From IMG/VR virus record IMGVR_UViG_3300031772_000009, positions 27,362 through 91,361 of that record: a stretch of 64,000 nucleotides of DNA; one strand, written 5' to 3'. Below, one piece after another: positions 4,644 through 63,507 of the stretch (the stretch's first letter is position 1; each line of letters opens with the position of its first letter). The notes below the pieces were generated by a model, which saw nothing but the letters and a program-made list of their open reading frames with translations, was not told where the DNA came from and did not search any database. A program made the translations under genes and the position numbers. This DNA is from a virus.

Positions 4644-4710
4644 GATGTGCCAAATAAACAAGATGAAAATAACCATAAAGTTTAAATAGTGGAAATGATT
4701 ATTATATGTC

Positions 4711-8529: not shown

Positions 8530-8697
8530 AGTTTGTGATTGGTAGAAAAAGTAAAAGTATCGAAAAGAGCATGGATATTATTGATGACTACCTATATGAC
8601 GAACATGGAAACGCTAAAGACCGAGAGTTTTACTTTACCATATTTCCTAGACCAGAAATAAATGATTACGCATTAAGCAAAAGGGTTGAAAGATAAA

Positions 8698-9279
8698 ATG
8701 TCGAGAAAGAAAGAAATTCCATGGGAACGTTATTCTCATATACCAATCTTAGAGGGAAACAGAAGGTTGCAAAGACAATTGCTTGGTCTAAGATTACACT
8801 TCACGATTAAACATGACGGACAAAACGTTACTATTTGGCTGAGAAAAAAGAAATACTGCAAGAAGAAAACAGAGATAATAATTTCTAGTCACAACCAAGA
8901 AAACGCTTTCTCAGACATAGTGGCTTGTGTTCAAAAGACAGAAGAATACCAGAAGATTCTTGAACTCATAGCAGACAATCCAACTTTCAGAGTGGTTGCT
9001 GAAGAATGTGCTAAAGGAGCAAGCATCACGGGAATAAGGCAATATTCAAAGGCAACGTTAATCGTAGTTGACATCTTTGACACGGCAATAATGAACTACT
9101 TATCCTATACTCAAGTCTATCAATTCTGTTATCATTATCATATACCAATCGTTGAACTTTACGCTACGACAAGACACAGAACAATCAAGGACTTGATGAA
9201 GTTTTCACACCACGTTCTGGAATACTGTAATAAACCTAAATGTCAATGTCTTGATTGTGGTAAAATATTTGAAAACTAA
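8698..9279 (+). CDS. RNA ligase (Rnl-type nucleotidyltransferase), N-terminal part
   Basis: Motif I KHDGQN, SH of Ia, VAEE (III), VDI (IIIa); ends in half a Zn ribbon, CLDCG. Confidence 0.75.
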   Translation: MSRKKEIPWERYSHIPILEGNRRLQRQLLGLRLHFTIKHDGQNVTIWLRKKKYCKKKTEIIISSHNQENAFSDIVACVQKTEEYQKILELIADNPTFRVVAEECAKGASITGIRQYSKATLIVVDIFDTAIMNYLSYTQVYQFCYHYHIPIVELYATTRHRTIKDLMKFSHHVLEYCNKPKCQCLDCGKIFEN

Positions 9280-17000: not shown

Positions 17001-18211
17001 TAACTGAAAACACAAAAATCGTGAAATGGAAAAACAATAAATAGGAGATGAGAAAATGGTAACTCTGATTAGGAGATATTCGACAAAGGACGGACACTTA
17101 CTTAAGAGACCAACAAAAACGTCTCTGTTCCGCTTTTTACACGACAACCAGATAGCTGATTCGCCTAGACTGAAGACACCAAAAACAAAAGACGAAAATT
17201 TTCCATGTGACGAATGCACAGAACCTTTACCGTGTGACGCTGAAAACTTAGAACAATGCAAAAAGAAAAGAGGCGTAGAAGAGGAATAAAAATGAAGTGT
17301 AGAGCTTGTGGAGTAAGAATTATCATTTTTTCAGATGGTTGGACTCCACATGTGTTAGAGATTCCTAGTTATGGTTATACTGAATATCACAGATGTAAAG
17401 CTCTAGGCATTAATGCGAAAATGCTTCCCAAATCAGTCTGCAAACAATTCGGAATAGAACCAGAGGAATAGAAACATGAGCATGAAAATAGAACATGATA
17501 GAAATGGTGACTACTCAATCAAACTTGCTGGAATGCGAAAACGGTTTACAGCTAAAACCACTGAAGAATTAACGCTTGCCATAGAACATTATTTTGGCAA
17601 AACTGCACATTTCACTAGAGAAAACAATTGGAAGGGTTTAACAGACTGTCCACTATGCAGAAAATATGAGGAATAGAAAAATGGAAGATTTGTTACCAAA
17701 TCAAGAAGAAAAATGTCCTAGATGTCATGGAGTTAGTTATTGGTTTGCAACTTCAGAAACCGATGAGCCTATTTATTTCTGTAATCGCTGTAAACGTCAA
17801 TTTAAGATTGATAGAAAACAACAAATGAGGCTGAGTAAATGAAAGCTGAAAAAATGAAAATGAAGACTGAAACATTGAAATATGGAACGTGTCAACATTG
17901 TAACCGTCTAGTCGAATCAACAAGAAATGCCATAATTGTATGTCTCCAAGAAGGTGATAGAAATGAAGTTTAAAAACTTGATGGGGATATTCGGGTTACT
18001 GTTTGCTCTATGGGGTTTCTTGTGGATAGTCTTAATGCCTAATTACACATATTCTTTCGTTGAATATACCACGCTTAGAGATGAGACCGTAACAACAATC
18101 GTAAGAAGTCTCAACATGCCATACGCTTTTGCATTGATAGTCATTGGCGTTCTTTTCGCCATTGTTGGGCTGTTCATTCCAGAAAACATTGTAATAGCCT
18201 CAGAAGACTAA
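14033..18211 (+). CDS. early-type operon(s) of ~14 short hypothetical ORFs
   Basis: Promoters at ~13982 and ~15101; tightly packed ORFs ending in a 2-TM protein and a T-rich terminator at ~18215-18230. Confidence 0.6.
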
Positions 18212-18278
18212 TCTTCCTCTTTTTCTTTTCGTAATTTCTCCATAAAAGCTTATATACTTGATTGTGTACTGTATTATT

Positions 18279-18420
18279 GCACACAAGTTAGAGAAAGGCT
18301 GTACCAGAAAGAAGGACTGTACCAGAAAACCTTTCTCCCATAGCATAAAACTCTATTGTGTGTGAGTGGCTATGGACTAAAGATTCGGTTTGGGGAGACC
18401 GTTAATACTCCCCTCTCTTT
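18279..18420 (+). ncRNA. putative structured small RNA with pseudoknot
   Basis: TATA 18250-56; helices GAGAAAGG/CCTTTCTC, GCACACAA/TTGTGTGT, CCATAGC/GCTATGG, GGGGAG/CTCCCC; pyrimidine tail; no credible ORF. Confidence 0.55.
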
Positions 18421-18589
18421 CTCATATTGACCTAATTCTTTCTCATGTCGTTCCCTATATCTTTTATTCGCTTGTTTTCTTCTTTCTTTGAAATTTCCTT
18501 CATAGATTGTTTTTCTCTCGTAAATTCCTTTCGGCATTGTGTTTACACCATAAAGACTTATATAGGAGTATGCTATAGTATTCTATTAA

Positions 18590-18790
18590 GAGTACGTCTG
18601 GATAGGAACGTAAGCCGAATCCAGCAAAGACACCACTACCATACTAAGAAGCCAAACAATAGGCAAACAGCGACAATTAATAATTTAAAAGGATATTTGA
18701 TATTTGCAGAGAAAGAGGGGAAAGATGCTCTCAATGTCATGCATATCTCTAAATAAGTCTCCCACCTAGAAAGAGCAACATTACTTTTTA
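18590..18790 (+). ncRNA. putative small RNA
   Basis: Consensus promoter CCATAAAGACTTATATAG at 18548-18565 with no downstream start; CTGGAT/ATCCAG stem. Confidence 0.4.
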
Positions 18791-18985
18791 TAAGGCTCAA
18801 AAAAAACTAACTTTCCTCTAGGATTACCCTTATCAAAGTTTCTGGAATCCTTACTAAACTCTGAAAAAAATGTTAAGAAAATCAACTAAAAACATAATGG
18901 AAAAACCGTTTCATAAAATTGAAATACTTATAAGCCAATTCAATCCTATGAAAAGCTGTTTCAGAAACCAAAATTGGAAACCCAA

Positions 18986-19062
18986 AAAAAGTCGCCTATG
19001 TGCAACCTCTCCCCTCTCTAGTTTAACTTTCAGTTTAACTTTGGCTGGTTAAACTGAATAGA
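18986..19062. repeat. palindrome-rich non-coding element, copy B
   Basis: Same 18-mer, CCCCTCTCT and CTTTCAGT..ACTGAA blocks as copy A; 11-bp hairpin TTCAGTTTAAC/GTTAAACTGAA. Confidence 0.7.
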
Positions 19063-19101
19063 GACATATGACAGTTTAACCGTTGAATGTCATGATTTGG
19101 T

Positions 19102-19446
19102 TTAACTCAGATTTTCTACAATTCCATGAATTTTTATCGTTGTTCCCATTGTACTAAATTCGATTATATTATTCGGTTTTTTATTTTGGTGTTTTCGTGA
19201 TGCTTTTATGAAAAGAACCTTTTTAAAGTCTGATTTTCGATATTTGGGCTTTTTCTGGAGTCGTTCATTATGGAAGGAACATTCAACGGAAATAACCTCT
19301 TTTCGCTTAAAGTCAACGATTATGAGGTCTGGAATCGGTCTAACCTCAAATATCTGCATGTCTTCTGAATGTCCTAGTTTAAAGATTCTTTTTGTCTTTT
19401 CGATTAATTTCTGATGTTCTCTTATTTTCTTTTGGAATATAGACAC
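19102..19446 (-). CDS. PD-(D/E)XK-like nuclease
   Basis: IPDLIIVD....ISVEC. Confidence 0.55.
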   Translation of the reverse strand: MSIFQKKIREHQKLIEKTKRIFKLGHSEDMQIFEVRPIPDLIIVDFKRKEVISVECSFHNERLQKKPKYRKSDFKKVLFIKASRKHQNKKPNNIIEFSTMGTTIKIHGIVENLS

Positions 19447-19898
19447 TTTTCTATCATCTCCCTATTTCTCGTTAAGTTTTCTAGCGTAGACCTAGACAGC
19501 AACAGAGACCGAAAGCCTAGTTTCTAGGTCTTCCATATTCAGAAACAATGATAGAAACATGACTACTTAAAGGCTTATGGTCTTTTTCCGAAAGCCTTTT
19601 CCATGACTATATAAGAATCCATGACTATAGGTTTAACTCTCTCTTGCCCGCCAAATTCTCCATGATTATTTAAAGCATAGAGAATTTTAGGTTTAACTTT
19701 AGATAATAATGAAAAATGTAACATATCATGTTTACCATGCTTTTAACATTCACGACATGATATGTATGCTTAAGTAGTGGTTTTCCCATGTACCCATAAG
19801 GAAAAAAAAACTACCATGACAACGAGAAAAGAAAAGAATGCGATAACGCTTAACCGTCTCTTGTGCGGTTTAAGGTTATGAATGCGGTCTTTTCTTGT

Positions 19899-19923
19899 TA
19901 GAGCTTTCGGAAATGCCTTAACA
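19899..19923 (+). repeat. left arm of 25-bp inverted repeat (partner 25934-25958)
   Basis: TAGAGCTTTCGGAAATGCCTTAACA vs reverse complement TAGAACTTTCGGAAATGCCTTAACA, 24/25 identical. Confidence 0.9.
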
Positions 19924-20024
19924 AAAGCATACACAGATAAGACATAAGTTTCAATCCTTTTTTTGTTTGATAGAGTTAGAGCAGAAACTCTAACTCCAAA
20001 TTAATAAAAAAGAAGGTATGAAAA

Positions 20025-20378
20025 ATGAAGGTGTTATTTGGTAACTCAGCTAATAGAAAAGAAGACTATTCAGCTATAGAGATAAGAGACTGTGAAGCAT
20101 ACGGAAAATTTGAACCGTTAACACAGTCAATCATTCTTAATTTGCCAAAAGATATGATAGAGAATGAGACCGTAAAAGCCTATAGTAACGAAAGAAAAAC
20201 TTTAGAGTTTTACGACATGTTAACCTTAACGCTAGAGCTATTAGACCATGAGACGCTACATAAGATAATAGCTGATATAGAAGGAATTTTAACCTCAGCA
20301 AAATTGGATAACACAAACATAGAAGAACTAGAAGATAACCTCTTTAATAATGAACCCTTAAGAGGTAATGAAGAATGA
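20025..20378 (+). CDS. small HExxH family protein (paralog 3)
   Basis: DHETLHKIIADIEGILTSAKLDN. Confidence 0.6.
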   Translation: MKVLFGNSANRKEDYSAIEIRDCEAYGKFEPLTQSIILNLPKDMIENETVKAYSNERKTLEFYDMLTLTLELLDHETLHKIIADIEGILTSAKLDNTNIEELEDNLFNNEPLRGNEE

Positions 20379-20981
20379 ACAATGAGAATCTTAAAGCCTA
20401 TTACGAATTACAAGAACGTCTTAAGCAATACGAAAAAGAAGACAGAGAAAAGAAAAGGCTAAAGGCAAAAACCTTAAGGCTATTGCGAAAGAAACGAAAG
20501 CTGGAGAGACAGCTAAAAGCAACAGAAAAGGAATATGTAGACTTGCTTTATAACGATAAGGTCTTTTCCTATTTCGAAAGACGTAGATTCTTAGAGAAAC
20601 ATAATAAAGAAGGTGATTGAATGCCAACATGTGAAATATGCGGAAAAGAAACAAGTAGCGTTAAGCTCTCCAGAATTAGCCTAACGACTTATGGCAATAC
20701 CTCACAAGTCGAAAGGTTAATGTGTAAGTCATGCAGAGACCTAGAGAAAAAGGGTTTACTCTAAAGAGGTTTTGAGAATGTCGAAATATGACTTAGAAAA
20801 GCCTAAACGCTACAGAGTAAAAGCGAAACATGGAATAAACACAGAAAAGAGTAACTCAGTAAACTTAAGCCATATGAAACTAAAAGAAATATACGCTCTG
20901 TTTCACTATAAAAATCTTGTCCGTTCTACAGTGAAATAAAACGGAAAAGACTTTTAACTGTCAAACATATAATAGTCTATC

Positions 20982-21368
20982 ATGTTTGACAGAAAAACCT
21001 ATCAGAGAAAATGGAGACAAGAACATCCAAAACAAAAGAGAGAATATGATAGAAAATACCGTGAAAGACATATAGGACTATATCAAAAACATAAAGAGAA
21101 AATCAAATTCGAAAGGCAAAATATGAGACGTAAAGTTTTTGAACATTTAGGAAATAAATGTGTTTCTTGTGGTGAATCTGATTTTAGATGTCTACAGATA
21201 GACCACGTTCACGGACACGGAGTTAAAGAGATTAGAAAACTATGCGGAAACAGTAAAGCCTATTACGACAAAATTCTTAACGATACTAACGGAAACTATC
21301 AATTGCTCTGTGCAAATTGTAATTGGAAAAAACGATACGATAATAAGGAATATTCGAAATATCCTTAA
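20982..21368 (+). CDS. HNH endonuclease
   Basis: LGNKCVSCG..D.RCLQIDH...LCANCN. Confidence 0.85.
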   Translation: MFDRKTYQRKWRQEHPKQKREYDRKYRERHIGLYQKHKEKIKFERQNMRRKVFEHLGNKCVSCGESDFRCLQIDHVHGHGVKEIRKLCGNSKAYYDKILNDTNGNYQLLCANCNWKKRYDNKEYSKYP

Positions 21369-21452
21369 AAATCTACAATTCTAATTTTTCTTAGAATTGA
21401 ACAAGTTTTATTCTTCTTAGAACGGAAAAAGTAAAAAAAGAAGTGTTGAAAA

Positions 21453-21689
21453 ATGAACAGAAAAATAATAGTGTTGGGTTTAACAATATGCGTTATTGGC
21501 ATTCTGCTTTATAACGCATATGAAACCATAACGATAAGGCGGAGAGGTGGAAATAATCCAGATGGAACAACTTACCATTATTCAACATATGAGACAGTAT
21601 ATCCATATCGTTACAATAGCTTAATAGTTGTTCTTTTGGGTATTGTAACTTTCCTTATCGGTTTGGCAATTCCTAAAAGGAAAGTGTGA
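21453..21689 (+). CDS. small two-TM membrane protein (resembles 17936-18211)
   Basis: Two hydrophobic helices, PY....LI..G...G L.IP. Confidence 0.55.
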   Translation: MNRKIIVLGLTICVIGILLYNAYETITIRRRGGNNPDGTTYHYSTYETVYPYRYNSLIVVLLGIVTFLIGLAIPKRKV

Positions 21690-22093
21690 AAAATGGATAA
21701 TCAAGATTTAGGTAAACTGTACCTAATAGCCTTACTGAAACGTGAAGGAAAAACAGAAATAGAAATAAGCAAAATCTTAAAGGATGTGTGAATATGGAAG
21801 ATAAAGACCTTAGACAAGAACATGAAGCTTATCTTAAAGTTATGGAAGGATACAGAAATTTTGACAAGACCGTTAAATGTTTACACAGAAAAGCTAAGAC
21901 TCAAACAGCGTTTAAACAGCTAGAAGACAGTAACTTAGAAATAGCTGAAGTGATGTGCTTAGAGTGTCAACAGTTTATAGGTTTTGTCTACAGAAAAATA
22001 AAGACTGTACGACAAGAAAAGATAATTGCTAAGTTTCTAGTTTACGCTGTAGACAAGAACGAATATACAACAGAAAAACGGAGAGTCTAAAGA

Positions 22094-22804
22094 ATGACTT
22101 ACCTTAAATTCTACGGATACGAAAAAGAAAAATTCCCTAACCAAAACAAGACGCATATACCAGATAAGAACGTTTCAAAATTCGCTCAGAAAATAGCTAA
22201 ACACTTTAAAGTTTCTCTAAGAGCAGTAAGACTAAGATGTTATAGAAATAGCGGAATTGCTCATTGTGGAATATGCGAAATAGGTTTAAGCCATAATCCA
22301 ACAGTCTTGTTAATCATTCATGAGATAGGACACTTATTCACATACCAAAAACTGAATGAAGCTAAACATAACAAGAACTTAATGCTTTTCATAAAGAGAG
22401 CATGTAGATATGCAGAAAAAATGGGATATTGGAGTTTAGAAGCTTCTGAAACTGAAAAATTTGAGCGGAAAAAGCCTAAACAATTCCTAGTTTATAGTAA
22501 GTGTCCAAATTGCGGTTTTGTGAATGATTGGGTAATGCCAAAAGAACACAGAGCATTTTATAAGACTCACTATGCGGTTAATACGGTTCACGATATGACT
22601 TGTTCACAATGCAGAGTAAGAACGAAACACACGATAACACAACAGAAACTTATCACTTTCGAAAATAGATTAGCTGAACAGCTAGAGAGACGTAGAAACT
22701 TCAGCAACTACGCTTTAATGATTATTCCAGAAACAGAAAAGGCTTTAGCTATTCCAGAAACTAAAGCAATAACGGTCTATAAAATACCTCTAGGATGTGT
22801 CTAA
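22094..22804 (+). CDS. SprT-like zinc metalloprotease with Zn ribbon
   Basis: IIHEIGH...H; CPNCG...CSQC. Confidence 0.6.
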   Translation: MTYLKFYGYEKEKFPNQNKTHIPDKNVSKFAQKIAKHFKVSLRAVRLRCYRNSGIAHCGICEIGLSHNPTVLLIIHEIGHLFTYQKLNEAKHNKNLMLFIKRACRYAEKMGYWSLEASETEKFERKKPKQFLVYSKCPNCGFVNDWVMPKEHRAFYKTHYAVNTVHDMTCSQCRVRTKHTITQQKLITFENRLAEQLERRRNFSNYALMIIPETEKALAIPETKAITVYKIPLGCV

Positions 22805-22807
22805 AAC

Positions 22808-23128
22808 ATGGAAAATATACGGATAAGCAATAAAGATACTGCTTTAGCTTTTGTTTCACCTTACAACAAAACCACCATATTTCTCAATATTCCAAAACAT
22901 CTTTTCCTAGATTCAGAAACAATAAAAGTATATCATATGAGAGAGAAACAATGGGTAAAGAAAAAATTGATAAATGAGATTTTTTCACTATTAGAACATG
23001 AATCTTTACACATTGTCTTAGACAAAACCGTAAGTGCAGAAGCTAGCGAAAAACTAGACAATCCTATTGATAATGAAACTTTAGAAACTATACTATATCG
23101 TGAACAATGGCTAAATTATGAGGTTTAA
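22808..23128 (+). CDS. small HExxH family protein (paralog 4)
   Basis: EHESLHIVLDKTVSAEASEKLDN. Confidence 0.6.
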   Translation: MENIRISNKDTALAFVSPYNKTTIFLNIPKHLFLDSETIKVYHMREKQWVKKKLINEIFSLLEHESLHIVLDKTVSAEASEKLDNPIDNETLETILYREQWLNYEV

Positions 23129-23438
23129 GAATATGACAGAAGATAACTATAAACTAGAGTTTAGGACCGCACAGAGACGGACAACTTTAACCTTTATTAA
23201 TCCTAAAGTTTCAACGGACACGATTTTCATAAACGATAATGCACTAGAAGAAAATCTTTATCTTTTCGAAAAATATATAGAGGAATTGCTAGAGCATGAG
23301 AGTATCCATCTAGCCATTTTATACGCTGTTGGAAAGAGTGAGAGCAGAGCATATGATAAGATGTATATGTTTATGGACCGTGTTTTAGTAATAATGAGGT
23401 CTCAAAATGACAAGAAACAAGAAACTCAGAAAATATAA
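23118..23438 (+). CDS. small HExxH family protein (paralog 5)
   Basis: EHESIHLAILYAVGKSESRAYDK. Confidence 0.6.
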   Translation: MRFKNMTEDNYKLEFRTAQRRTTLTFINPKVSTDTIFINDNALEENLYLFEKYIEELLEHESIHLAILYAVGKSESRAYDKMYMFMDRVLVIMRSQNDKKQETQKI

Positions 23439-24546
23439 GAAACATCTATCAAGTAAAAAGTTTAAGCTTCTGATAGAGGTTTTGCTGATAGATGTAGAAA
23501 AACCTACAGTGTCTTTTAAGTCACTGTCAAAAGTAGAAACGATAAGAATAAAACAATAATGGAGAGTGATAAGAGAATGAAGATAGAAAAGGTTAAGATA
23601 TTCCTAAAGTCTAAACATTGTTTTGTCTATACGGACAAACAGAGTTTTGAGGTAGCTTTCGAAAAAGTCGAAATAATCGAATAAAACAAAATGGGAGAGT
23701 GAAAAGAAAAATGGAAATAGACAACAGAGAGCAATACCTAATAATAGGTTGTCTTAATACGGTTAGGTTGTTAGCTGAAAAGAACGTACAAGATTTAGAA
23801 CAAGAACAACATAAGAGACCGTTAAGGGAATTTGAGAGATTAGCCTTATTAAGACTCAAAAGTGAAGTAGAAGACATAAAGAAACTACATGATAAAATAG
23901 TTTGTGGAAGGTGAAAAAGAGAATGAATAAAACACAGAAAAGAATATTGGAGAGACTGTTTAAACGGTCTCTGAAAGACCTAGAGAAACTTAGTGTTTTC
24001 GCAAAATCCAAAACTGAAAAGGCTTTAGCGAATAGACTTCTTAAGCTGTTCTATAAGAAACAGAGAAACTATAAGGTTAGTTATTGGTTAGCTGAACCTT
24101 ATAGTTTTGGAGAGCTTAGGGAAGAAACAACGATAAGAGCTTTTAGCCTAAACCATGCAATACACATAACGCTTAATGAACAGATAAGACCAATAATGCG
24201 GAAATATTGCGATATACAAGACAATACCATAACCTACATAAAGAGTTATGACAGAAACGATTTCTCAGAGAATTATCTATCTGAATCTTTCGTTGTGGAA
24301 GACCTAGAAGACCTTAAGGATATTTGCATGACAGCTAATGCTTTAATCCTAGTGCATAGAACAAACCGTAAGAATCCTTACTATACTAGATTGTGGAAGA
24401 CCTTAAGACAAAACAAGAATCCAATAATAAAGAAGGCTTAAAGCATGGAAAAAGCAAAATGTAAAACATGTTATCCAATATTCGGAAATTGTCCATTTTT
24501 CTTATGGATTCAAAAATGTAAACCAAAAGAAAAGAAGGTGATATGA

Positions 24547-24723
24547 ATGTTTACGAAACAACACTATATAGCTATTGCAAAAATGGTTAGTGATGTAAAA
24601 ACTGAACATGGAGATAACATAACGCTACAGCAATTAGAATATAAACTTAGAGAATATTTCTCAGAAGACAATCCCAATTTTGATAGAGTAAGATTCTCTG
24701 AAGCATGTAAATCTAGGATGTGA
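24547..24723 (+). CDS. small conserved phage-type protein (not in ORF track)
   Basis: Read by hand: MFTKHNYIAIA...EDNPNFDRVRFSEAC; GGTGA SD. Confidence 0.55.
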   Translation: MFTKQHYIAIAKMVSDVKTEHGDNITLQQLEYKLREYFSEDNPNFDRVRFSEACKSRM

Positions 24724-24904
24724 AACAATGAAACAATTAACTAGGGAAGGAATAATAGAACTAAAGAGACAATATGAAGAAAAGTGCAGAGCATGTTATA
24801 AGAGACATAAAGGTAAAACCTTTAACTGTAGAACGTGCTACTTAAGATTAATGCAAGAAGACTTAAACAAAATACCAAAAACACCAATAAGAAGGTATAG
24901 ATAA

Positions 24905-25204
24905 ATGACACAAATAAAAATCTATATTCCTTCAGTCTTTCGACACTCTAAAGCAGTAAACGACTTCATAAACACAATGCTTAAAGAGTTTAACGGTTTG
25001 ACTGTCTACGATTGTTTAGGATATTGGGTTAATCCAGAAAATCAAATAGAAACAGAGACCGTTAAAGTCTATGAATTCTTAACGCTATATTCAAACATGG
25101 AAGATATAGACTCTATAGTTTCTACTGAATGCAAAAAGCTTAAGCTGTTGCTGAACCAAAACAGCGTTTTGTATGCTATAGACAATAAACCCTTTTTCGT
25201 TTAG
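24905..25204 (+). CDS. DUF3574-like ferredoxin/PII-fold protein
   Basis: FNGLTV....GYW......E...Q.SV pattern. Confidence 0.5.
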   Translation: MTQIKIYIPSVFRHSKAVNDFINTMLKEFNGLTVYDCLGYWVNPENQIETETVKVYEFLTLYSNMEDIDSIVSTECKKLKLLLNQNSVLYAIDNKPFFV

Positions 25205-25933
25205 AAGGTGAAATAATGACAGAATGCGAAACTTGTAAACTGAAAAGCAATTGCACACAAACCGATAAAGACTTATGCATAGACTTTTTTTTCAATCATG
25301 TAAAAACTAGGATGGTGATAACGTGAAAAGAGAAAAAGAAAAACCTTTAAAATTTGGATTCTGTTTTAACTGTGATGAGCATAGAATCTTAAACGAAAAT
25401 AATTTATGCTCTGAGTGTACTGAACAAAAGGACCAAAAAGAATATTCCGAAAAAGAAGGTTTAGCTGAGACAGTCTTAAACGAATTAGCTAAGACACACA
25501 ACGACTTTAAGACAGTACAAGACAGAAAATATACAGTCTACACAATATTTCGTTATCACAACACACCTTTTAAGGTTGAAAAGATGGTAGGTTCAAATCA
25601 AGTCTTACTTTATGACAATGAAGACAAGACCATATATGACAGTGATAATGAGACGCAAGAACAGAGAAACGACTTTAGAAGGTGGCTAGAGAAACAGATT
25701 ATTTGTTTACTGTTGTGTGTCTTACCTAATGGTTTAAACGACACAATAGGAACATAAAGAAGGTGAACACATGGGAAAAATAAGAATTATAGACAAGAAA
25801 CAGAAAAGAGAATTGATAGCTAAAGCCCATTTTTGGTTTGGTTCAACAGAAGACATATTTAGAGACGGTCTAATAATTGAGCATGACACAGAGAGAGCTT
25901 TAACTTACGTCTTTAAGCCTATTCCCTAAACAA

Positions 25934-25958
25934 TGTTAAGGCATTTCCGAAAGTTCTA
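25934..25958 (+). repeat. right arm of 25-bp inverted repeat, followed by T-rich terminator
   Basis: TGTTAAGGCATTTCCGAAAGTTCTA, starting 4 nt after the last stop (25929), then TCTTTTTCT. Confidence 0.9.
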
Positions 25959-25959
25959 T

Positions 25960-27070
25960 CTTTTTCTATATTCGGTTTTGTTTCGCCGTAAAATCATTTT
26001 AAGGGTAAGAAGACCGAAAATAACGACTTGTTTTAAGCTTCTTTTGCCAAATAAAGCCCAATAATTATAGGTTCAACCAATCGCTTAATATTCGGACACC
26101 ATGAAAAGCATGGATAAAAACCGAAATAGAAACGTAAGCCTTTTCTTGTGGTCTCTGCATTTAGTCTAAGTTTCTATCTAAGTTTCTGTCTCTGTCTTTC
26201 CGCTCTGTTTGGTCTAGGCTAAACACTCAAACACTAGAGGTCTTACTATACTATCACAACACACAAGACCGAGACGTTAACGCTTAGACAACAGAGACGG
26301 ATAACGCTTTAGTTTCACTGTCATTCTAGGCTTACGGTCTAGTATCTGGACAACAGAGACCGTATAGACCGAGACCGTATAGACTAGACCTCTATACTAT
26401 CAACATATCACTACATATTCATTAAGCCTCTAAACATATTACCCAATAGACACACACCACCATTAACTAGCTTACCATATGGTTCAATAGTGTTATGCGT
26501 CTCTGTTGTCATGGATGTTAATAGGTTATTACTATTGTTATATAACTATTGTCATAACAAGCCACTGCATACCCTAATGTCTACCACTCCACCACCCATT
26601 AAGAAATAGACCATAACAACGTTAAAACGTATAGGTGTCGTATGTTGGACGGGCAGTTTGGGTGGATGGTGGGTCTATGTGGTGCTGGAACGTAGTGGAT
26701 TATTCTAAGTTATTCTGTGGGATTCGGCGTTCTTCTCAGTTATACATTTGCTATTCTATGGTATTATGATAAGATAGTAGGTCGTTCTGGTTGTCCAAGA
26801 TATAAAAACAGAAGGTGTATATGAGGGGTATGTACTATTGATTAATAATAAAAAAAACCAGAGAGGACGTTACTACTCCCCCCATATACACGTATCGTTT
26901 TTAAATGTTTGTGGTTATGCGTTTGTGGCAATAAACACTGAATATTGACAAAAGTGTATTGTCGCCACTGAGAGATAGAGAGAAGAGAATGTTTTCACAG
27001 TTCGGTGAAACTATATAAATAGGAGTGAAAGTTACTCCACTGTGGCGGTGGAGAGAAAGAAAAATAGGTT
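25960..27070. other. 1.1-kb non-coding repeat-rich region; candidate origin or packaging/terminus region
   Basis: GACAACAGAGAC at 26287, 26349 and inverted at 26499; GACCGTATAGAC x2; CTATACTATCA x2; C/A-rich to G/T-rich strand switch near 26630. Confidence 0.5.
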
Positions 27071-27077
27071 AAGTCGC

Positions 27078-27287
27078 TTAAACGGTTGGAATGATGTATG
27101 TTATGATGACAGTGACTTTTCCTTGGCTACTAACTTCGCTTGCGAGACCCCTTATTTCTACTGGACCATAAGATAGTCGTCTAAGACGAATTTCATCAAC
27201 GATTTCTTGAGACGTTCCAACGAGAATTTCAATCGTGTTGCCCTTGCTGTCTTCACTGCAATGTGATACATAACTTGCTACAGCCAT
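27078..27287 (-). CDS. hypothetical protein
   Basis: ATG-started 69-aa ORF divergent from the tRNA operon. Confidence 0.45.
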   Translation of the reverse strand: MAVASYVSHCSEDSKGNTIEILVGTSQEIVDEIRLRRLSYGPVEIRGLASEVSSQGKVTVIITYIIPTV

Positions 27288-27345
27288 TTTAATTCACGTT
27301 TATACAATGGAGAAACATTGTTAAAAGCTTTTTGTCAAGGCAACG

Positions 27346-27353
27346 TTTATATA
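27346..27353 (+). promoter_or_regulatory. archaeal TATA box of the tRNA-YunG-Mom operon
   Basis: TTTATATA about 25 nt upstream of the tRNA 5' end. Confidence 0.7.
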
Positions 27354-27377
27354 TGCCGTTTGCACTAGGTATTAAAT

Positions 27378-27457
27378 GCGGAGATAGTTCAAAAGTCCAG
27401 AACGGTTGGCATCCCGCCAACAGATGACAGACAACGGAATCTAGTCTCTCCGCACCA
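27378..27457 (+). tRNA. atypical tRNA-Gly(TCC)-like RNA with encoded CCA
   Basis: Acceptor GCGGAGA/TCTCCGC + A73 + CCA; D-stem GTTC/GAAC; anticodon stem GTTGG/CCAAC, loop CA-TCC-CG; T-arm lacks TTC (GACAGA-CAACGGAA-TCTAGTC). Confidence 0.8.
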
Positions 27458-27461
27458 AAAA

Positions 27462-27833
27462 GTGATTGACTTGACGACTGAACAATTGAGGGAACTTCGA
27501 GAGAAACTTGAGAAGTGTTGGTGTAAAGAAACAATTTGGCATAAAAATACTTGGAATCCAGACAAACTTTCTAAGGGTCAATGTTACGTTACCGCATTAC
27601 TAATTCAAAATATTTTGGGTGGAAGAATTTTTCATGGTACTGTTGAGAATGAAAATCATTACTGGAATGAACTTCCAGACGGGACAGAAGTAGATTTGAC
27701 TTCAGACCAATTTGACGATGGAGACGGAATTCATGTTCATCTAAAACATTTCTTTTTGAGTGTTGTCACTCCTAATAAAAGAAACAAACGTTACTTAATA
27801 TTGAAGGAGAAATATCTTGCCGTCAATAAGTAA
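27462..27833 (+). CDS. YunG-like protein (putative Cys-His-Asp papain/transglutaminase-like)
   Basis: GQCYVTALLIQ..LGG.I....HYWN....VDLTSDQF. Confidence 0.7.
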   Translation: MIDLTTEQLRELREKLEKCWCKETIWHKNTWNPDKLSKGQCYVTALLIQNILGGRIFHGTVENENHYWNELPDGTEVDLTSDQFDDGDGIHVHLKHFFLSVVTPNKRNKRYLILKEKYLAVNK

Positions 27834-50242: not shown

Positions 50243-52420
50243 ATGACACACGAATGGGATTGGAATAGTTGGATTAGACGAAAGAAACCAGTACCTAAAA
50301 TCGAACCAGAAATAGTAACAAAAGTAACAGAAGTAACAAAAGAATGGGATTGGAATAACTGGACTACAACAGAAGGGTTTCCAGTTTCAACCGAACTTAT
50401 GGATTGGGTGATTGGACAAGATAGAGCCATTGAAGAAACCAAATTATGCATAGATGAATGGATAAACAAACTGTCATGGTTAAAAAAGAAAGAATGGTGG
50501 AAGGATTTTGAAGACCCTAAAGCACAAAAACCTCAACCTAAAGACTGGCTTCCAGTTGGACCTTACCTACTTTTGCTTGGAGATGCTGGAACTGGAAAAA
50601 GCCTTTTGGGAAGGGCAATGTCTAGTTACATGACGAAACTCTACAAGGAAAAGGGACTGAAACTCTACGATGTGTTGTCGTGGAAAAACCCAACTTTACC
50701 GTCTGAACCTAAAATTAGCATTCATCCGTCTGGAACTGGAAAATCAGTAATATTCAATTCCACGTTAAAGAACAGAAAGAAATCATTCTTTTCAAGATGG
50801 GGAATGAAACTTTTTGTAGGATTCATGGTTGGGATGGGTATGTTAATACTTGGTTTAGGATTCTATTTTACATCGTTATTAATGCGAGAAGGCATACCAT
50901 TCCAATATGCATTAAGTCCATATATCCAGTATATGGTTGCTGGTGGCGGGTTAATGTTTAGTGGTATATTTATACGTTTCTTTAGTCGAGTAGTGGGAAA
51001 CATGGGAAGTGGAACTCAAGGAATCGGCGGAGCAACATCGTCAAATTGTCCAAAATTACTCATTGACAATTCATCTGAAAAAACACCTTTCATAGACGCA
51101 ACTGGTCACGGTTCAGCCCAACTATTCGGCTCAATTGCTTGGGACCCATATCAGACTGGCGGGTTGGGAACTCCAGAACATCAGAGAGTTACTGCTGGAG
51201 ACGTTCATAGAGCACATTTGGGAATTCTTTACATTGACGAACTCAAAAATTTAACTGGGCAAGAAGCAATTACTTTGTTAACTGTTCTTGAGGATGCTCA
51301 ACTTCCAATAGCGTTAAGAAGTCTAGTTCATGGCGGCGACACGGCGGCAATGTCTGTTTCTACAGAACCAATTCCGTCCATGGTATTCTTTATAGGTGCT
51401 GGAAATTTGGACAGTCTTCAACATATTCATCAAGCGTTACTTGACCGTATCCAAGGTTATGGCAAAGTTGTTTATATGAACAATGACATGTCAAACACGG
51501 AAGAAAACAGACGGAAAGTGATACAATTTATAGCTCAAGAAATCAAGAGATTCAACCTTTTGCCCTTTGACAGAGAAGCATGTGAAGAAATAATTGCTGA
51601 GTTCAGAAGAAAAAGTGGTTTCAAAAACAAGTTGACAACGAAGTTTAGACCAATGATTAGTATAATTAAAACTGCAAGTACATTAACTACGAATGAAGGT
51701 TTATCTATAGTCAAAAAGAAACACGTTGATGAAGCAGTAAAAGTCCACTGTAAAAACATTGGGATGCAGATATTGGAAAGACAAGTCGAAAAACAAAAAC
51801 TATACAATGTGATTACACCGTCTTCTAAACCAAAGAAAGGACAAATATTTGGTTTAGCCGTTTTAACTTCAGATAATGAAGACGTTATGGTTGGTTCAGT
51901 TTTGCCAATACGTGCTTCAATGATAAAATGTGAACTTGTGAAACTTGGGGAACTCGTCACTCAAGAAGAGGGGTATTTCCACGTTACTGGAGTAGAAACA
52001 GTAAACCTAAACAGTTGGGTACAACACAGTATTTCAAAAGTGGTACATGTCTTCGCTCAGAAATACAAAATAAACTTGAGTAAATATAAGACACATATTG
52101 ATTTTGCACAGAGTATTGGCATTGACGGTCCAAGTGCTGGAGTCACAATGGCATTGGCTTTAATATCAATATACAAAAACAAAAAGATAAGACAAGACGT
52201 TGCGGTTACTGGAGAAATCAACATTGGCATTGATGGAAAAGTAGAGATAACTCCAATCGGTGGAGTTCATGAGAAAATTATGGCGGCTCAAGAAATCGGA
52301 ATCAAAAAGGTTCTGATTCCAAAAAGAAACTATGAAGTAAATATTAATCCAGCAGACTATACGATTGAGGTTGTTGGATGTGAAACGTTAGAGGATTATA
52401 TGAGGGAAATTCTTGTCTAA
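50243..52420 (+). CDS. lonB: ATP-dependent Lon protease, archaeal LonB type
   Basis: GQD, GDAGTGKS, TM insert in AAA domain, LFGSI..DP..GGLGTP, AH.GILYIDE, DGPSAG Ser and GGVHEK Lys dyad. Confidence 0.92.
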   Translation: MTHEWDWNSWIRRKKPVPKIEPEIVTKVTEVTKEWDWNNWTTTEGFPVSTELMDWVIGQDRAIEETKLCIDEWINKLSWLKKKEWWKDFEDPKAQKPQPKDWLPVGPYLLLLGDAGTGKSLLGRAMSSYMTKLYKEKGLKLYDVLSWKNPTLPSEPKISIHPSGTGKSVIFNSTLKNRKKSFFSRWGMKLFVGFMVGMGMLILGLGFYFTSLLMREGIPFQYALSPYIQYMVAGGGLMFSGIFIRFFSRVVGNMGSGTQGIGGATSSNCPKLLIDNSSEKTPFIDATGHGSAQLFGSIAWDPYQTGGLGTPEHQRVTAGDVHRAHLGILYIDELKNLTGQEAITLLTVLEDAQLPIALRSLVHGGDTAAMSVSTEPIPSMVFFIGAGNLDSLQHIHQALLDRIQGYGKVVYMNNDMSNTEENRRKVIQFIAQEIKRFNLLPFDREACEEIIAEFRRKSGFKNKLTTKFRPMISIIKTASTLTTNEGLSIVKKKHVDEAVKVHCKNIGMQILERQVEKQKLYNVITPSSKPKKGQIFGLAVLTSDNEDVMVGSVLPIRASMIKCELVKLGELVTQEEGYFHVTGVETVNLNSWVQHSISKVVHVFAQKYKINLSKYKTHIDFAQSIGIDGPSAGVTMALALISIYKNKKIRQDVAVTGEINIGIDGKVEITPIGGVHEKIMAAQEIGIKKVLIPKRNYEVNINPADYTIEVVGCETLEDYMREILV

Positions 52421-54544: not shown

Positions 54545-56251
54545 TCATTTCCATTCTACTCCCTTAAAGAAATCGTCCTCTTTAATCTGTGTTTTAGATT
54601 GAGTTTGAAACTTGAGAAACTCCTCAAATATGCTTTCTCCACTTTCCTCAACTTCGAAACCATCCATGGAATAACATAACGAGTCGAAACTGTGGTCGTC
54701 AATCTTTCTTATCTTTCCATTTTTGTCCCATGCCAACTTTCTCAATGAAGCAGTAAGATACCAGAAAGCTTTTGGCACAATAATTTTGTGTCTCTCAACA
54801 AAATTGATGGTTCTATATACCCGTTCCGATTTCTCTTGTTCCGCTATAATATACACGGCGTATCCCTTCTCTTCTAACGGTTCATTCAAATGTTTTCCAG
54901 CCGCATTTGGGTCTGGAATAAACGTGTAAGTTTTATATTGCTTGCAAATTTCGTCTATCCAATCTGGTTTTTCCGTGTCCTTCATGCCTAATTGTTCATC
55001 GTTGAACAGAACGAAAACTACGTCTTTCTTTCTTCCGATAATAGTTAATGAACACGGAGCGTCTGAATATCCATAATCAAATCCCGCTTGCCTATCTATT
55101 ATATATTTCGTTGGGTCTTCTTCTGTGCCGAGTTCTCCAAGTTTCACAAGTTTACATTCTTTCCAATTGTAAGGTTCACAATTTTCACAGAGACTACATA
55201 TACAAACGTCTAAATCACCCTTTTTGAATACTGCTCCAGAAGCCATACTTGCTCCACCTAAAGCTTCACAGAGCCATTCTTCATCACTTTTGCTTTTTCG
55301 TTTATCACTTATTTCTTTTCGTGTCACCCACCATACATTGGGAATCCAATGGGTTGGGTCTTTATCAGTGTAAACTTTGTATGGGTCTGTTTCTCCATTA
55401 ATGTGTTTTGCTATAGACCATCTGTAAACTTTCTGGAAACCATACTTTTCTGGATTCTTCATGTAATCATAAAACTTTCCAAATATATAATGAACTGTGG
55501 AACTCAAAAGTAATACACTACATCTTTTTCCAGTAAGTTGCCACTGGACAGCCGCAACTGCTTTAGCACCATCTTCACTTTTTGATTCTGCTTCACATGC
55601 TTCGTCTATTTCCACAATGTTAACATGTGGTCCCCTTGCGGCTGTGGTACTACATGGTGGAAACTTTATTAGACTTCTCCCTAATGTTTTAGCGTAACGT
55701 CTTATTCCCTTCAACGACTTATAAATGATTTTTCCAATCATTGGAATATCCATTCTCCAATCATCAATATAATCTTGTATTAACTCTGACTGTTCACCAG
55801 AACCACCCATACAAGTTATTGAGATGTGGTCTTCCGTTGTTGTTTTCCAACAGTTGAATATTCCAAAAATAAAGGTTTTTCCAGCCCCTCTAGCCGCCGC
55901 CAATATAGCCGTAGTAATATTGTTTTTCCATAAATCAATTAGAAACTCTTTTTGTTCTTCAGACAAAATGAGATGGTAAGGAATACCATTGTCTCTGAAT
56001 TTAGGATGTTCTGTTCCTATAGAACAATCATCGTTACATGGTAAAATTGGATTATTATTCGGGTCATAATCTGGATGTATTGGAACGTCCATTGGACAAG
56101 TAAGCAAGTGTTCAGCAAACTCTACTGGTCCACGGTCTCTCCAACGTTTTTGCCAATCTTCTATTTCTTGTTTACTTAAATCTTTCTTATCAGTATGTCT
56201 ACGGAGTAGTTCTTTTCTTGCTCGGCTGTAATCATCTCTGGACGACATCAC
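54545..56251 (-). CDS. terL: terminase large subunit
   Basis: AARGAGKT, ARG..VEIDEA, SST, GFDYG, DDHSFDSLCY. Confidence 0.9.
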   Translation of the reverse strand: MMSSRDDYSRARKELLRRHTDKKDLSKQEIEDWQKRWRDRGPVEFAEHLLTCPMDVPIHPDYDPNNNPILPCNDDCSIGTEHPKFRDNGIPYHLILSEEQKEFLIDLWKNNITTAILAAARGAGKTFIFGIFNCWKTTTEDHISITCMGGSGEQSELIQDYIDDWRMDIPMIGKIIYKSLKGIRRYAKTLGRSLIKFPPCSTTAARGPHVNIVEIDEACEAESKSEDGAKAVAAVQWQLTGKRCSVLLLSSTVHYIFGKFYDYMKNPEKYGFQKVYRWSIAKHINGETDPYKVYTDKDPTHWIPNVWWVTRKEISDKRKSKSDEEWLCEALGGASMASGAVFKKGDLDVCICSLCENCEPYNWKECKLVKLGELGTEEDPTKYIIDRQAGFDYGYSDAPCSLTIIGRKKDVVFVLFNDEQLGMKDTEKPDWIDEICKQYKTYTFIPDPNAAGKHLNEPLEEKGYAVYIIAEQEKSERVYRTINFVERHKIIVPKAFWYLTASLRKLAWDKNGKIRKIDDHSFDSLCYSMDGFEVEESGESIFEEFLKFQTQSKTQIKEDDFFKGVEWK

Positions 56252-57939: not shown

Positions 57940-58848
57940 ATGATAAACTTTGAAGAAACGAACTATACCCTAATGACTAGCGATTTGACGGACACTTGCG
58001 ACTTAATTCCAATCATAATCTGGAAGGAAATAAATCTCGGTGCAACATACAAGTTCGTTTTCATGCAAGCCGTAGAGATAACCGATATTCTCGTAGGCGT
58101 TGATGGAAACAGCATTTGTGTGCCATATCTTGACCGAGACGAATTTACTGCTAGAAGCATAACTGAAGCCGCATTGGACAGTGGTGGATATGTCAAGGAC
58201 ATACTAGCACCAGAAACCATACTGATAGAGATTGGCGACATAATTTACAATGCCACAAGAATTTCTGATGTGGTCATGGAAGATTCACCTAGCCTCGGTT
58301 GGGTAAGAGCTTCACTTCAGAAGATGGGACAAGCCATCGCTCTGAGAATTGACGAAGACATCAGAGATGCCCTAGTTGCGGGTGCGGGAGCATTCGCCGC
58401 CGCCATAACTATAGGCACACTCTCATATGATGACGTTGTAGATGCAGTTGCCTCACTAAAAGGTGCTGGTTACTGGGCTGAAGACGGAGCATATCTGCTC
58501 TTTGTCAATGCCGCACAAGAAGCAGACCTTGTTAAAGACACAAGGTTCACTGACACAGCAAGATACAGTTCAGCAAACATTCCACTGCAAGGTGAGACTG
58601 GAAAATTTGCGTCATGTAAATGTTTGGTAACAGACATTACCATGGCTTGGGGAGCAGTTGCCTACGCATTGGTAGTTGCACCGCCAACCAACAAATATGG
58701 TCCAGCCGCAATGTTCGCATGGAAACGCCACGTAAAGCAAGAAGCATGGCGTGACGCACAAGAAGGTAGAGATGTCTATCTGCTTTCGTGTCGCTACGGT
58801 GTAGAGGTAAAGTTCGCTGACGCAATAGCGTTAATTAGCGATTGCTAG
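57940..58848 (+). CDS. major capsid protein, HK97 fold
   Basis: LIP..W..., TRIS...MED, MGQAIA.RIDE, E.GK, RYG C-terminal pattern; terminator after. Confidence 0.85.
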   Translation: MINFEETNYTLMTSDLTDTCDLIPIIIWKEINLGATYKFVFMQAVEITDILVGVDGNSICVPYLDRDEFTARSITEAALDSGGYVKDILAPETILIEIGDIIYNATRISDVVMEDSPSLGWVRASLQKMGQAIALRIDEDIRDALVAGAGAFAAAITIGTLSYDDVVDAVASLKGAGYWAEDGAYLLFVNAAQEADLVKDTRFTDTARYSSANIPLQGETGKFASCKCLVTDITMAWGAVAYALVVAPPTNKYGPAAMFAWKRHVKQEAWRDAQEGRDVYLLSCRYGVEVKFADAIALISDC

Positions 58849-62221: not shown

Positions 62222-62503
62222 TTGGTAAACATGAGTGAACAACCTAAACAAGAAGAACCGTACCCAGTACATGAAACAGTGAAAGTGTTGAAGGGCAAAA
62301 CAATCTATAAGAACAAGAAGTGGTGGTATGCGGTACTGTTGACTGAAGAGTTTGGACATAAGAAAGTCAAGGTTTACATGTGGTCTTGGAACGACAAAAA
62401 GAATGGTTGGACACGTAAACAACACATTGGAATCAACTTTAGAAAGAACTGGGAAGACATGAAAGTGATAATAGAAGAATATATGAAGGAGATTGAGAAC
62501 TAA
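62222..62503 (+). CDS. PC4/whirly-like putative ssDNA-binding protein
   Basis: W-rich beta strands (YMWSW...WTRKQ..GI) next to RadA. Confidence 0.4.
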   Translation: MVNMSEQPKQEEPYPVHETVKVLKGKTIYKNKKWWYAVLLTEEFGHKKVKVYMWSWNDKKNGWTRKQHIGINFRKNWEDMKVIIEEYMKEIEN

Positions 62504-63507
62504 TGTCTGAAGAAAAAGGTAAGAAACCAGAATCAAAAGAAAAGAAAACGGTAGAAGATAAGATACGAGATTTCTATTCTACTGTTGAGATGAAAGAAAT
62601 AACTGGTAAATTGGAAAAGTTGATAATGAAACCAGTTGAAGAACCACGAAAATCTTTGAGTAGCGAAAACAGTCCTAAACTGTTAACTGGAACAGTCCTT
62701 GACGACATTCTTGGTCGTGGTGGCATTTGTGCTGGAAGACTAATAGAGGTTTACGGAGAATATGGAAGTGGAAAAACACAGATTGCCAAAACATTGGCGG
62801 CTGAAGCAAGTCAACAAGGAACAGTCATCTACATTGACGCTGAATACACGTTTAGTCCAGAAAGACAAGAACAGATTTTGAAAGCCCGTGGATTAGACAT
62901 AGAGAAATTCTGGAAAAACCTTATTATATATCAACCTAAAGACTGGATGTATCAATTGGCGGCTATTCAACAGATTCCGTCCCAAATAGACTTGGACAAG
63001 GAAGGAAGAGAACCAATCAAACTCATAATAGTTGACTCGTTACTCGCATTGATAGACACATCAGAAGACTTTGAGGGAAGACAGAACCTTCCAGTCCGAA
63101 GCCGAGTGATAAGAACTCAAATGCTCGGAAAACTTAGGCAACTTGCCCGAACACATAACTGTGTAGTCTTCTTTACCAACCAAATCCAAGATGTTCCAGA
63201 AGCCCAAAAGTGGACTCCAATGTATATGAAACAGAAGGGCAAAGGTGGTCCAACAGTTAGTCATGTTCCAGACATAATACTATATCTTAGGAAAGCGGCT
63301 GGAGACACTAGACTTGCAAGACTGATGGATAGTTCAGAACTTCCAGTTGGAGAAAGAGTCTATATTATTAACGAGAAGGGAATAGACGATGTTCCACCAT
63401 CAGTGAAGGAAAAGATAGAGAAAGCATCTAAGAAAGAAGAAGAGAAGGAACTGGACAAAATAGACGAAGAAGCAGAAACTAAGAAATCAGATAGTGAACA
63501 AGAATGA
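62503..63507 (+). CDS. radA: RadA-like recombinase lacking the N-terminal HhH domain
   Basis: TG..LDDILG.GG, EVYGEYGSGKTQ, YIDAE.TF.PER, LIIVDS, TNQ, R.ARLMDS. Confidence 0.85.
   Translation: MSEEKGKKPESKEKKTVEDKIRDFYSTVEMKEITGKLEKLIMKPVEEPRKSLSSENSPKLLTGTVLDDILGRGGICAGRLIEVYGEYGSGKTQIAKTLAAEASQQGTVIYIDAEYTFSPERQEQILKARGLDIEKFWKNLIIYQPKDWMYQLAAIQQIPSQIDLDKEGREPIKLIIVDSLLALIDTSEDFEGRQNLPVRSRVIRTQMLGKLRQLARTHNCVVFFTNQIQDVPEAQKWTPMYMKQKGKGGPTVSHVPDIILYLRKAAGDTRLARLMDSSELPVGERVYIINEKGIDDVPPSVKEKIEKASKKEEEKELDKIDEEAETKKSDSEQE

Follow-up and report, generated by a model that had tools for sequence, protein, structure and literature searches.

A 25-bp inverted repeat around a 6-kb gene block in an uncultured, probably archaeal tailed virus and its possible pairing in RNA

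The inverted repeat and the gene block that it encloses

The 64,000-nt window analysed here comprises bases 27362–91361 of the 91,361-bp IMG/VR record IMGVR_UViG_3300031772_000009, a genome that is rated complete, carries a 127-bp terminal repeat and belongs to an uncultured tailed virus, probably an archaeal one, and the stretch is present in sediment metagenomes. The element in question is an inverted repeat with two 25-nt arms that bracket a 6-kb block of co-directional open reading frames (ORFs), and the evidence is weighed on whether these arms act in RNA or in DNA. The features of the locus, in window positions, are as follows.

19869–19876, + strand: weak TATA-like box, TTTAAGGT; the left arm begins 30 nt after it
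19899–19923, + strand: left arm, TAGAGCTTTCGGAAATGCCTTAACA, within the leader, which is non-coding, and 102 nt ahead of the first start codon
19925–19971, + strand: 47-nt leader segment holding a T7 run (19958–19964); deleted in the strain variants X2 and X4
19973–19996, + strand: leader hairpin, GAGTTAGAG / CTCTAACTC, with a 6-nt loop
20012–20017, + strand: Shine-Dalgarno sequence GAAGGT; the left arm ends 88 nt before it
20025–25929, + strand: gene block of about 22 packed ORFs, 19 of at least 40 amino acids and three of 32–36 amino acids
20982–21368, + strand: HNH endonuclease
22094–22804, + strand: HExxH protein that looks SprT-like, with additional Cys pairs; 236 amino acids, the largest of the block
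25927–25929, + strand: last stop codon, TAA
25934–25958, + strand: right arm, with the reverse complement TAGAACTTTCGGAAATGCCTTAACA, 4 nt past the last stop codon
25959–25969, + strand: T-rich tract, TCTTTTTCTAT, with T5 at 25961–25965

Of the 25 positions, 24 are complementary between the two arms. At the remaining one G19903 stands against T25954, which gives a G·U pair in RNA of the + strand but A·C on the − strand; this strand bias, pointed out in a first-pass annotation of the window, is confirmed by the sequence and by the duplex energies (−39.4 kcal/mol for the + strand, −35.1 kcal/mol for the − strand). With up to one mismatch allowed, every other inverted repeat in the complete 91,361-bp genome is shorter than the arm pair, first-order Markov shuffles (n = 20) yielded longest inverted repeats of 18–22 nt against the real 25 nt, and none of the dinucleotide shuffles gave two matches to the arm. 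No third copy reaching 19/25 was detected genome-wide, and local alignment around the arms revealed no significant similarity extending past 25 nt, on which ground a longer degenerate repeat was dropped. The repeat is considered real, unique and sharply bounded because of the shuffles, the lack of a third copy and the lack of similarity beyond 25 nt.

Three further candidates were rejected: coding paralogy of the arms, since the ORFs that would overlap them lie in different reading frames and are not conserved, the right-arm ORF being without its ATG in the metagenome contig L011; a repeated regulatory motif family, with only two copies present; and a second bracket elsewhere, a 22-nt pair in the first 27 kb that sits within coding genes.

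The ORFs of the block are tightly packed, most of them overlapping or lying less than 15 nt apart, and no credible − strand gene was found in the block, so the first-pass statement that the enclosed ORFs are all on the + strand holds for all 22. Most of them are without known relatives. Language-model features (0.85–0.89) and predicted structure (TM 0.39–0.64) both place the 236-aa protein closest to SprT-like/WLM zinc metallopeptidases, and it belongs to a family of small HExxH proteins that is dispersed in the virus. Small ORFs of 32–36 amino acids fill apparent gaps at 21693–21791, 24445–24546 and 25216–25326; two of the three are Cys-rich with CxxC-like spacing, and the ORF at 25216–25326 ends in a GTGA start/stop overlap with the following gene.

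Promoter region, leader and trailer

The non-coding share of the genome is 12%, and TTTAWATA boxes are enriched five-fold in it (20 of 34 boxes in the complete genome, against 4 expected), many of them with a CCATAAA element directly upstream, for which reason the transcription signals are regarded as being of archaeal type. The promoter consensus of the genome is CCATAAAnn-TTTAWATA, examples being found at window positions 4681, 5532, 11654, 13992 and 29354, and a sigma-70 promoter scan is uninformative here, the promoters being of archaeal type. Left of the block lies a divergent promoter region with good − strand boxes at 19674 and 19571, where the + strand boxes are only weak, namely TTTAGATA at 19698 and TTTAAGGT at 19869. 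The TATA-like box that had been placed near 19869 is thus present, though weak, and it would set a start site at about 19899–19900, the first bases of the left arm. The bracketed block has no promoter of the CCATAAAnn-TTTAWATA class and may belong to a different temporal class.

From the left arm onwards, the leader consists of the 47-nt segment with the T7 run, a 9-bp hairpin, which had been noticed before and is located at 19973–19981/19988–19996, and the Shine-Dalgarno sequence. The 47-nt segment and its T7 run appear dispensable because they are absent from the X2 and X4 variants. The ribosome-binding site lies outside the predicted arm helix and, unlike in the icaR type, would not be masked by the trailer. 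As a separate observation, a predicted leader fold pairs CCUUUUUUU (19956–19964) with an A-rich stretch and the Shine-Dalgarno sequence (20006–20016), which would mask the first ribosome-binding site, and the X2 and X4 strains, with 19925–19971 deleted, lose this anti-Shine-Dalgarno segment. At the other end, the succession of last stop codon, right arm after 4 nt and T-tract is as it had been described, and the T-rich tract at 25959–25969 is likely the transcript end; the promoter and the terminator of the block are both predicted features.

The position of the left arm over the start site predicted from the 19869 box, the start site being a usual place for archaeal repressors, suits an explanation in which the arms are two binding sites of one DNA-binding protein, an operator at the start site and a second site where the block ends, serving repression, looping or insulation. 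The small dyad core TTTC-G-GAAA within the arm (TTTCGGAAA core) would fit such a protein, as would the CAACAGAGACSG boxes that both intergenic regions share (19500, 26289, 26351 and, on the − strand, 26508). However, the arms otherwise show no overall dyad symmetry, a protein rarely needs 25 contiguous identical bases without such symmetry, and only two copies exist in 91 kb. Moreover, the promoter context of the left arm does not recur at the right arm, since what lies upstream and how it is spaced differ between the two and differ again in L011, and a 6-kb loop is long in comparison with known operator looping. Identity over the full 25 nt in the absence of dyad symmetry is more in keeping with nucleic-acid pairing than with a site for a protein, and the two-site explanation is considered unlikely.

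Strain variants and relatives

The contig L011, the flanks of which are 94–96% identical to the window, has lost the last ORF (25759–25933) and carries a replacement of 25970–26178, and the right arm between these two changes is kept, with C in place of T25954, and is thereby perfectly complementary to the left arm of the window. Among Logan contigs from three other sediment samples, X3 shows the same deletion up to 25933, and X2 and X4 show a 47-nt deletion one base past the left arm (joint 19924->19972) with the left arm retained. The arms are therefore kept while the adjoining DNA changes on three sides (the deletion at 19925, the loss of the last ORF and the replacement of 25970–26178), a retention that constitutes a qualitative argument only. 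Covariation of the arms, proposed earlier as a check on RNA pairing, comes to a single change, G-C in L011 for G·U in the window, in one strain-level contig.

These variants bear on the explanation that a past rearrangement or a template-switch duplication left the repeat behind, without function or nearly neutral. Its confinement to this strain cluster is as such a leftover would have it, and the divergence of the arms, 1 in 25 between L011 and the window, equals the neutral expectation at 4–6% flank divergence. Against it, the arms lie exactly outside the first and last genes, the wobble falls on the sense strand, the arms survive deletion and replacement of adjoining non-coding DNA on three sides, and template-switch duplications normally give nearby repeats rather than a pair 6 kb apart. 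A neutral origin is considered about as unlikely as the protein sites.

Many further indels and replacements occur within the block among strains, with breaks at 21776 in the contigs L009 and L010, and variation begins 1–4 nt from the inner edge of both arms. In composition, the block (19923–25933) represents the strongest tetranucleotide outlier of the genome (r 0.885–0.896 against a mean of 0.959, sd 0.024), and its GC content is the genome minimum, flat at 32.7% and jumping to 38.6% directly past the right arm. Mosaic content and deviating composition would both be expected if the arms were the constant ends of a swappable gene module, either the terminal inverted repeats of a non-autonomous mobile cassette or conserved anchors for the exchange of cargo between related viruses by recombination, and the virus does encode a RadA/UvsX-like recombinase and several HNH endonucleases. 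Yet low GC and mosaicism are usual for small early-gene blocks, recombination between inverted copies inverts DNA and does not exchange it, no empty site was seen in the contigs, and no transposase or recombinase dedicated to such movement, TnpB included, was found among the block proteins or in the complete genome. Target-site duplication is likewise lacking, no direct repeat of 2–10 nt being common to the left flank, which ends in TTCTTGT, and the right flank, which starts with TCTTTTT; with no transposase and no further arm copies, a transposon or IS element is disfavoured. A swappable module is improbable, albeit the foremost of the rival explanations.

Searches beyond the strain cluster were mostly empty. 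The arm 18-mer has no match in IMG/VR, the arm 20-mer has four unrelated single chance matches in GTDB, none of which extends, and these results count against the module as well. IMG/VR yielded no relative either of the 236-aa ORF or of the families to which the first and last ORFs belong, and GTDB genomes none of the first ORF; among INPHARED phages neither the near nor the distant mode gave a match, and Rfam over 18.5–28 kb gave nothing above noise. Relatives of the first and last ORFs (P0003, P0005, P0009), with 81–86% identity, are present on Logan contigs of 12.4 kb and 14.8 kb. A neighbouring Mom-like gene is shared by six more distant loci (39% identity), in which none of the other window ORFs tested and no long-range repeat of at least 20 nt was detected.

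Orientation of the block

Inversion of the DNA between the arms had been named as the alternative to RNA pairing: the block would be flipped by a host recombinase or by RadA-like homologous recombination, switching the operon off from the outside promoter. Inverted repeats 25–34 bp in length are found on either side of known invertible segments, Mu G and Salmonella hin among them, and the RadA/UvsX-like gene at 62503–63507 means that the virus brings its own homologous-recombination enzyme; nevertheless, 25 bp is near the lower limit for homologous recombination. The earlier remark that no recombinase is visible holds genome-wide for the site-specific classes, serine and tyrosine recombinases (PF00239, PF00589) and TnpB being absent from all six frames of the complete genome, with the RadA/UvsX-like protein as the enzyme of another kind that is present. 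The genes of the block all point one way, with no alternative gene ends and no internal promoter.

The orientation itself was checked on contigs, and only that of the window was seen, in four metagenomes and in L011. The Logan contig from the source sample is unbroken from 18000 to 27709, the X2, X3, X4 and L011 contigs cross an arm in the window's orientation only, and no strand change occurs among the joints listed. Assembly of Logan contigs uses words that exceed the arms in length, for which reason a second orientation, if frequent, should have interrupted these contigs, while rare orientations can be missed in contigs. The inversion proposal is weakened by these results to a very improbable one, and a flip switch is disfavoured together with a transposon.

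Possible pairing of leader and trailer in RNA

The best single reading, held at somewhat less than even confidence and resting mostly on the failure of the DNA-level rivals in their own tests, is that the arms act as RNA and that the 5' leader pairs with the 3' trailer. The block at 20025–25929 would be transcribed rightwards from the divergent promoter region at 19.45–20.0 kb, the left arm would lie at or near the 5' end of the leader, and transcription would stop in the T-rich tract right after the right arm. Trailer and leader would then form a 25-bp helix of 24 Watson-Crick pairs and one G·U, and the ~6-kb polycistronic message, or the fraction of it that is full-length, would be closed into a panhandle. 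With both ends double-stranded, exonucleases that need single-stranded ends would be unable to start, and translation would not be blocked, as the helix would overlap no reading frame and would be 100 nt away from the first ribosome-binding site.

The geometry that the first-pass annotation had taken for an mRNA panhandle fits in several respects, namely non-coding arms directly outside the first and last genes of a one-directional block, a predicted start and end of transcription at the arms, a mismatch that is G·U on the sense strand and is G-C in L011, and no competing partner. The calculated energy of the arm duplex is −39 to −40 kcal/mol, whereas no other partner in the putative transcript does better than −18.8, and co-folding of leader and trailer gains ~29 kcal/mol while the leader hairpin stays intact. 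The stable and specific leader-trailer complementarity that characterizes the hbs/icaR type is thus found here, with both arms non-coding.

The same annotation had also drawn on archaeal pre-rRNA stems in proposing processing or circularisation, and this part finds no support. The arm helix contains no bulge-helix-bulge motif, consisting of 25 uninterrupted pairs without 3-nt bulges, and no RNase III gene was found in the virus; most archaea are without RNase III. The RNA ligase announced earlier is indeed encoded (PF09414), but its gene is split by an HNH gene. Since the 5' end would be paired and no more than a short U-rich tail would protrude from the helix at the 3' end, pairing is more likely to be protective than to be a signal for processing or circularisation. 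A slightly less probable reading is that the whole ~6-kb, 22-gene early message would be sealed against exonucleases, or passed to the viral RNA ligase, by a helix of its first and last transcribed bases. In a variant of leader-trailer pairing, the left arm would head a short leader RNA (19899 to ~19965) that ends at the T7 run and pairs in trans with the trailer; this variant and the panhandle in cis fit the present data equally.

A number of observations weigh against pairing across the block. T runs that can terminate transcription in archaea lie within the putative transcript, with T7 at 19958 ahead of the first gene and past the left arm, T5 with a hairpin at 21385 after the HNH gene inside the block, and T8 at 25285 inside the block in a small Cys-rich ORF. 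The 19869 box has no CCATAAA upstream element and matches the TTTAWATA consensus only in part, and L011 keeps the T-rich tract as TCTGTTTCTAT, in which the T5 is broken. No other transcription unit in the genome carries a comparable bracket, the relatives compared for the arms are strain-level only, and both the block and any comparable repeat are missing from the distant relatives with the Mom-like gene. The neutral rate of change in the arms given above applies here too, and the single change from G·U to G-C, compatible with sense-strand RNA pairing, carries at most one bit of weight. A span of 6 kb is without precedent, documented mRNA 5'-3' pairings spanning hundreds of nucleotides (PMC11780869). 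In sum, the sequences show the repeat, its uniqueness and non-coding position, its retention among strain variants and its energetics; a common RNA for the arms, their pairing in vivo and the effect of that pairing are inferred.

If leader-trailer pairing is true, known pairing between untranslated regions (UTRs) at the 5' and the 3' end would be extended from single genes of a few hundred nucleotides to 6 kb, and a helix joining the ends would be a simple way to protect or time a host-takeover message. To our knowledge, operon-scale 5'-3' end pairing of mRNA has not been described for archaea or their viruses, and little is known to us of the control of message stability in archaeal viruses; archaeal terminators are without the protective hairpin of bacterial ones. 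If the arms mark a swappable module instead, they would show how early-gene blocks are exchanged among archaeal viruses, and under either reading they supply exact coordinates for experiment.

Other features of the genome

Outside the bracketed block, the following genes were located in the window, and the genome also encodes tail proteins, sugar-modifying enzymes and a LonB-like protease with an archaeal LID domain.

8686–9279: RNA ligase, interrupted as described above
54545–56251, − strand: large terminase
57940–58848: HK97-type capsid protein
62503–63507: RadA/UvsX-like recombinase (phrog_97, E 5e-29)

The LonB-like protease gene (+ strand) and the large terminase gene (− strand) contain 48-nt stretches, 51922–51969 and 55116–55163, that are 85% complementary, and both stretches encode the common peptide C.LVKLGEL.T.E. 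The region at 25960–27077, to the right of the block, is the largest non-coding region of the genome (~1.1 kb), is 94% conserved in L011 from 26179 on, and may serve as an origin of replication or encode a long non-coding RNA. It holds CAACAGAGACSG boxes, including an inverted pair at 26287–26308 / 26489–26510 around 180 nt, with more boxes at 26351 and, outside this region, at 19500, as well as a canonical − strand TATA box at 27019.

Comparison with known systems

The locus resembles several known arrangements in part. Like the promoter-early stem-loop (PeSL) cassettes of T4-type phages, it has conserved non-coding elements at the bounds of a hypervariable early-gene region, whereas PeSL elements occur as direct repeats in many copies, every one of which has its promoter and local stem-loop, and the arms are one inverted pair with no local hairpin. 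Short inverted repeats also flank several-kb segments in Mu G/Gin, P1 C/Cin, Salmonella hin and int1 of the archaeal virus phiCh1; in contrast to these systems, no site-specific recombinase, no second orientation and no opposed gene ends were seen here, and the repeats are single and non-coding. The stems around 16S and 23S in rRNA operons are long-range helices built from the flanks of kilobase-scale transcripts, as the arm helix would be, and they are RNase III substrates in bacteria and bulge-helix-bulge substrates in archaea. Unlike them, the arms enclose protein-coding genes over a span twice that of 23S, with no bulge-helix-bulge and no viral RNase III.

The closest likeness is to messages whose own ends pair. 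In Bacillus subtilis hbs, a 14-nt pairing of the 5' and 3' UTRs is proposed to protect the 5' end from RNase Y, and in Staphylococcus aureus icaR such pairing controls the fate of the mRNA (PMC7821165; PMC5737220; PMC3868564); a functional 5'/3'-UTR interaction is described for haloarchaeal mRNAs (PMC2636863), and long-range duplexes for B. subtilis mRNAs (PMC11780869). With hbs and icaR the viral block shares complementary leader and trailer segments of one putative message, and the outcome proposed for hbs is likewise protection of the mRNA. It differs from these single bacterial genes of a few hundred nucleotides in extending over 6 kb and ~22 genes in a virus with archaeal-type promoters, from hbs in a predicted helix of 25 bp rather than 14 nt, and from icaR in a helix that does not touch the ribosome-binding site. 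If true, the pairing of the two arms would represent an operon-scale form, in an archaeal virus, of an mRNA end pairing that is already known.

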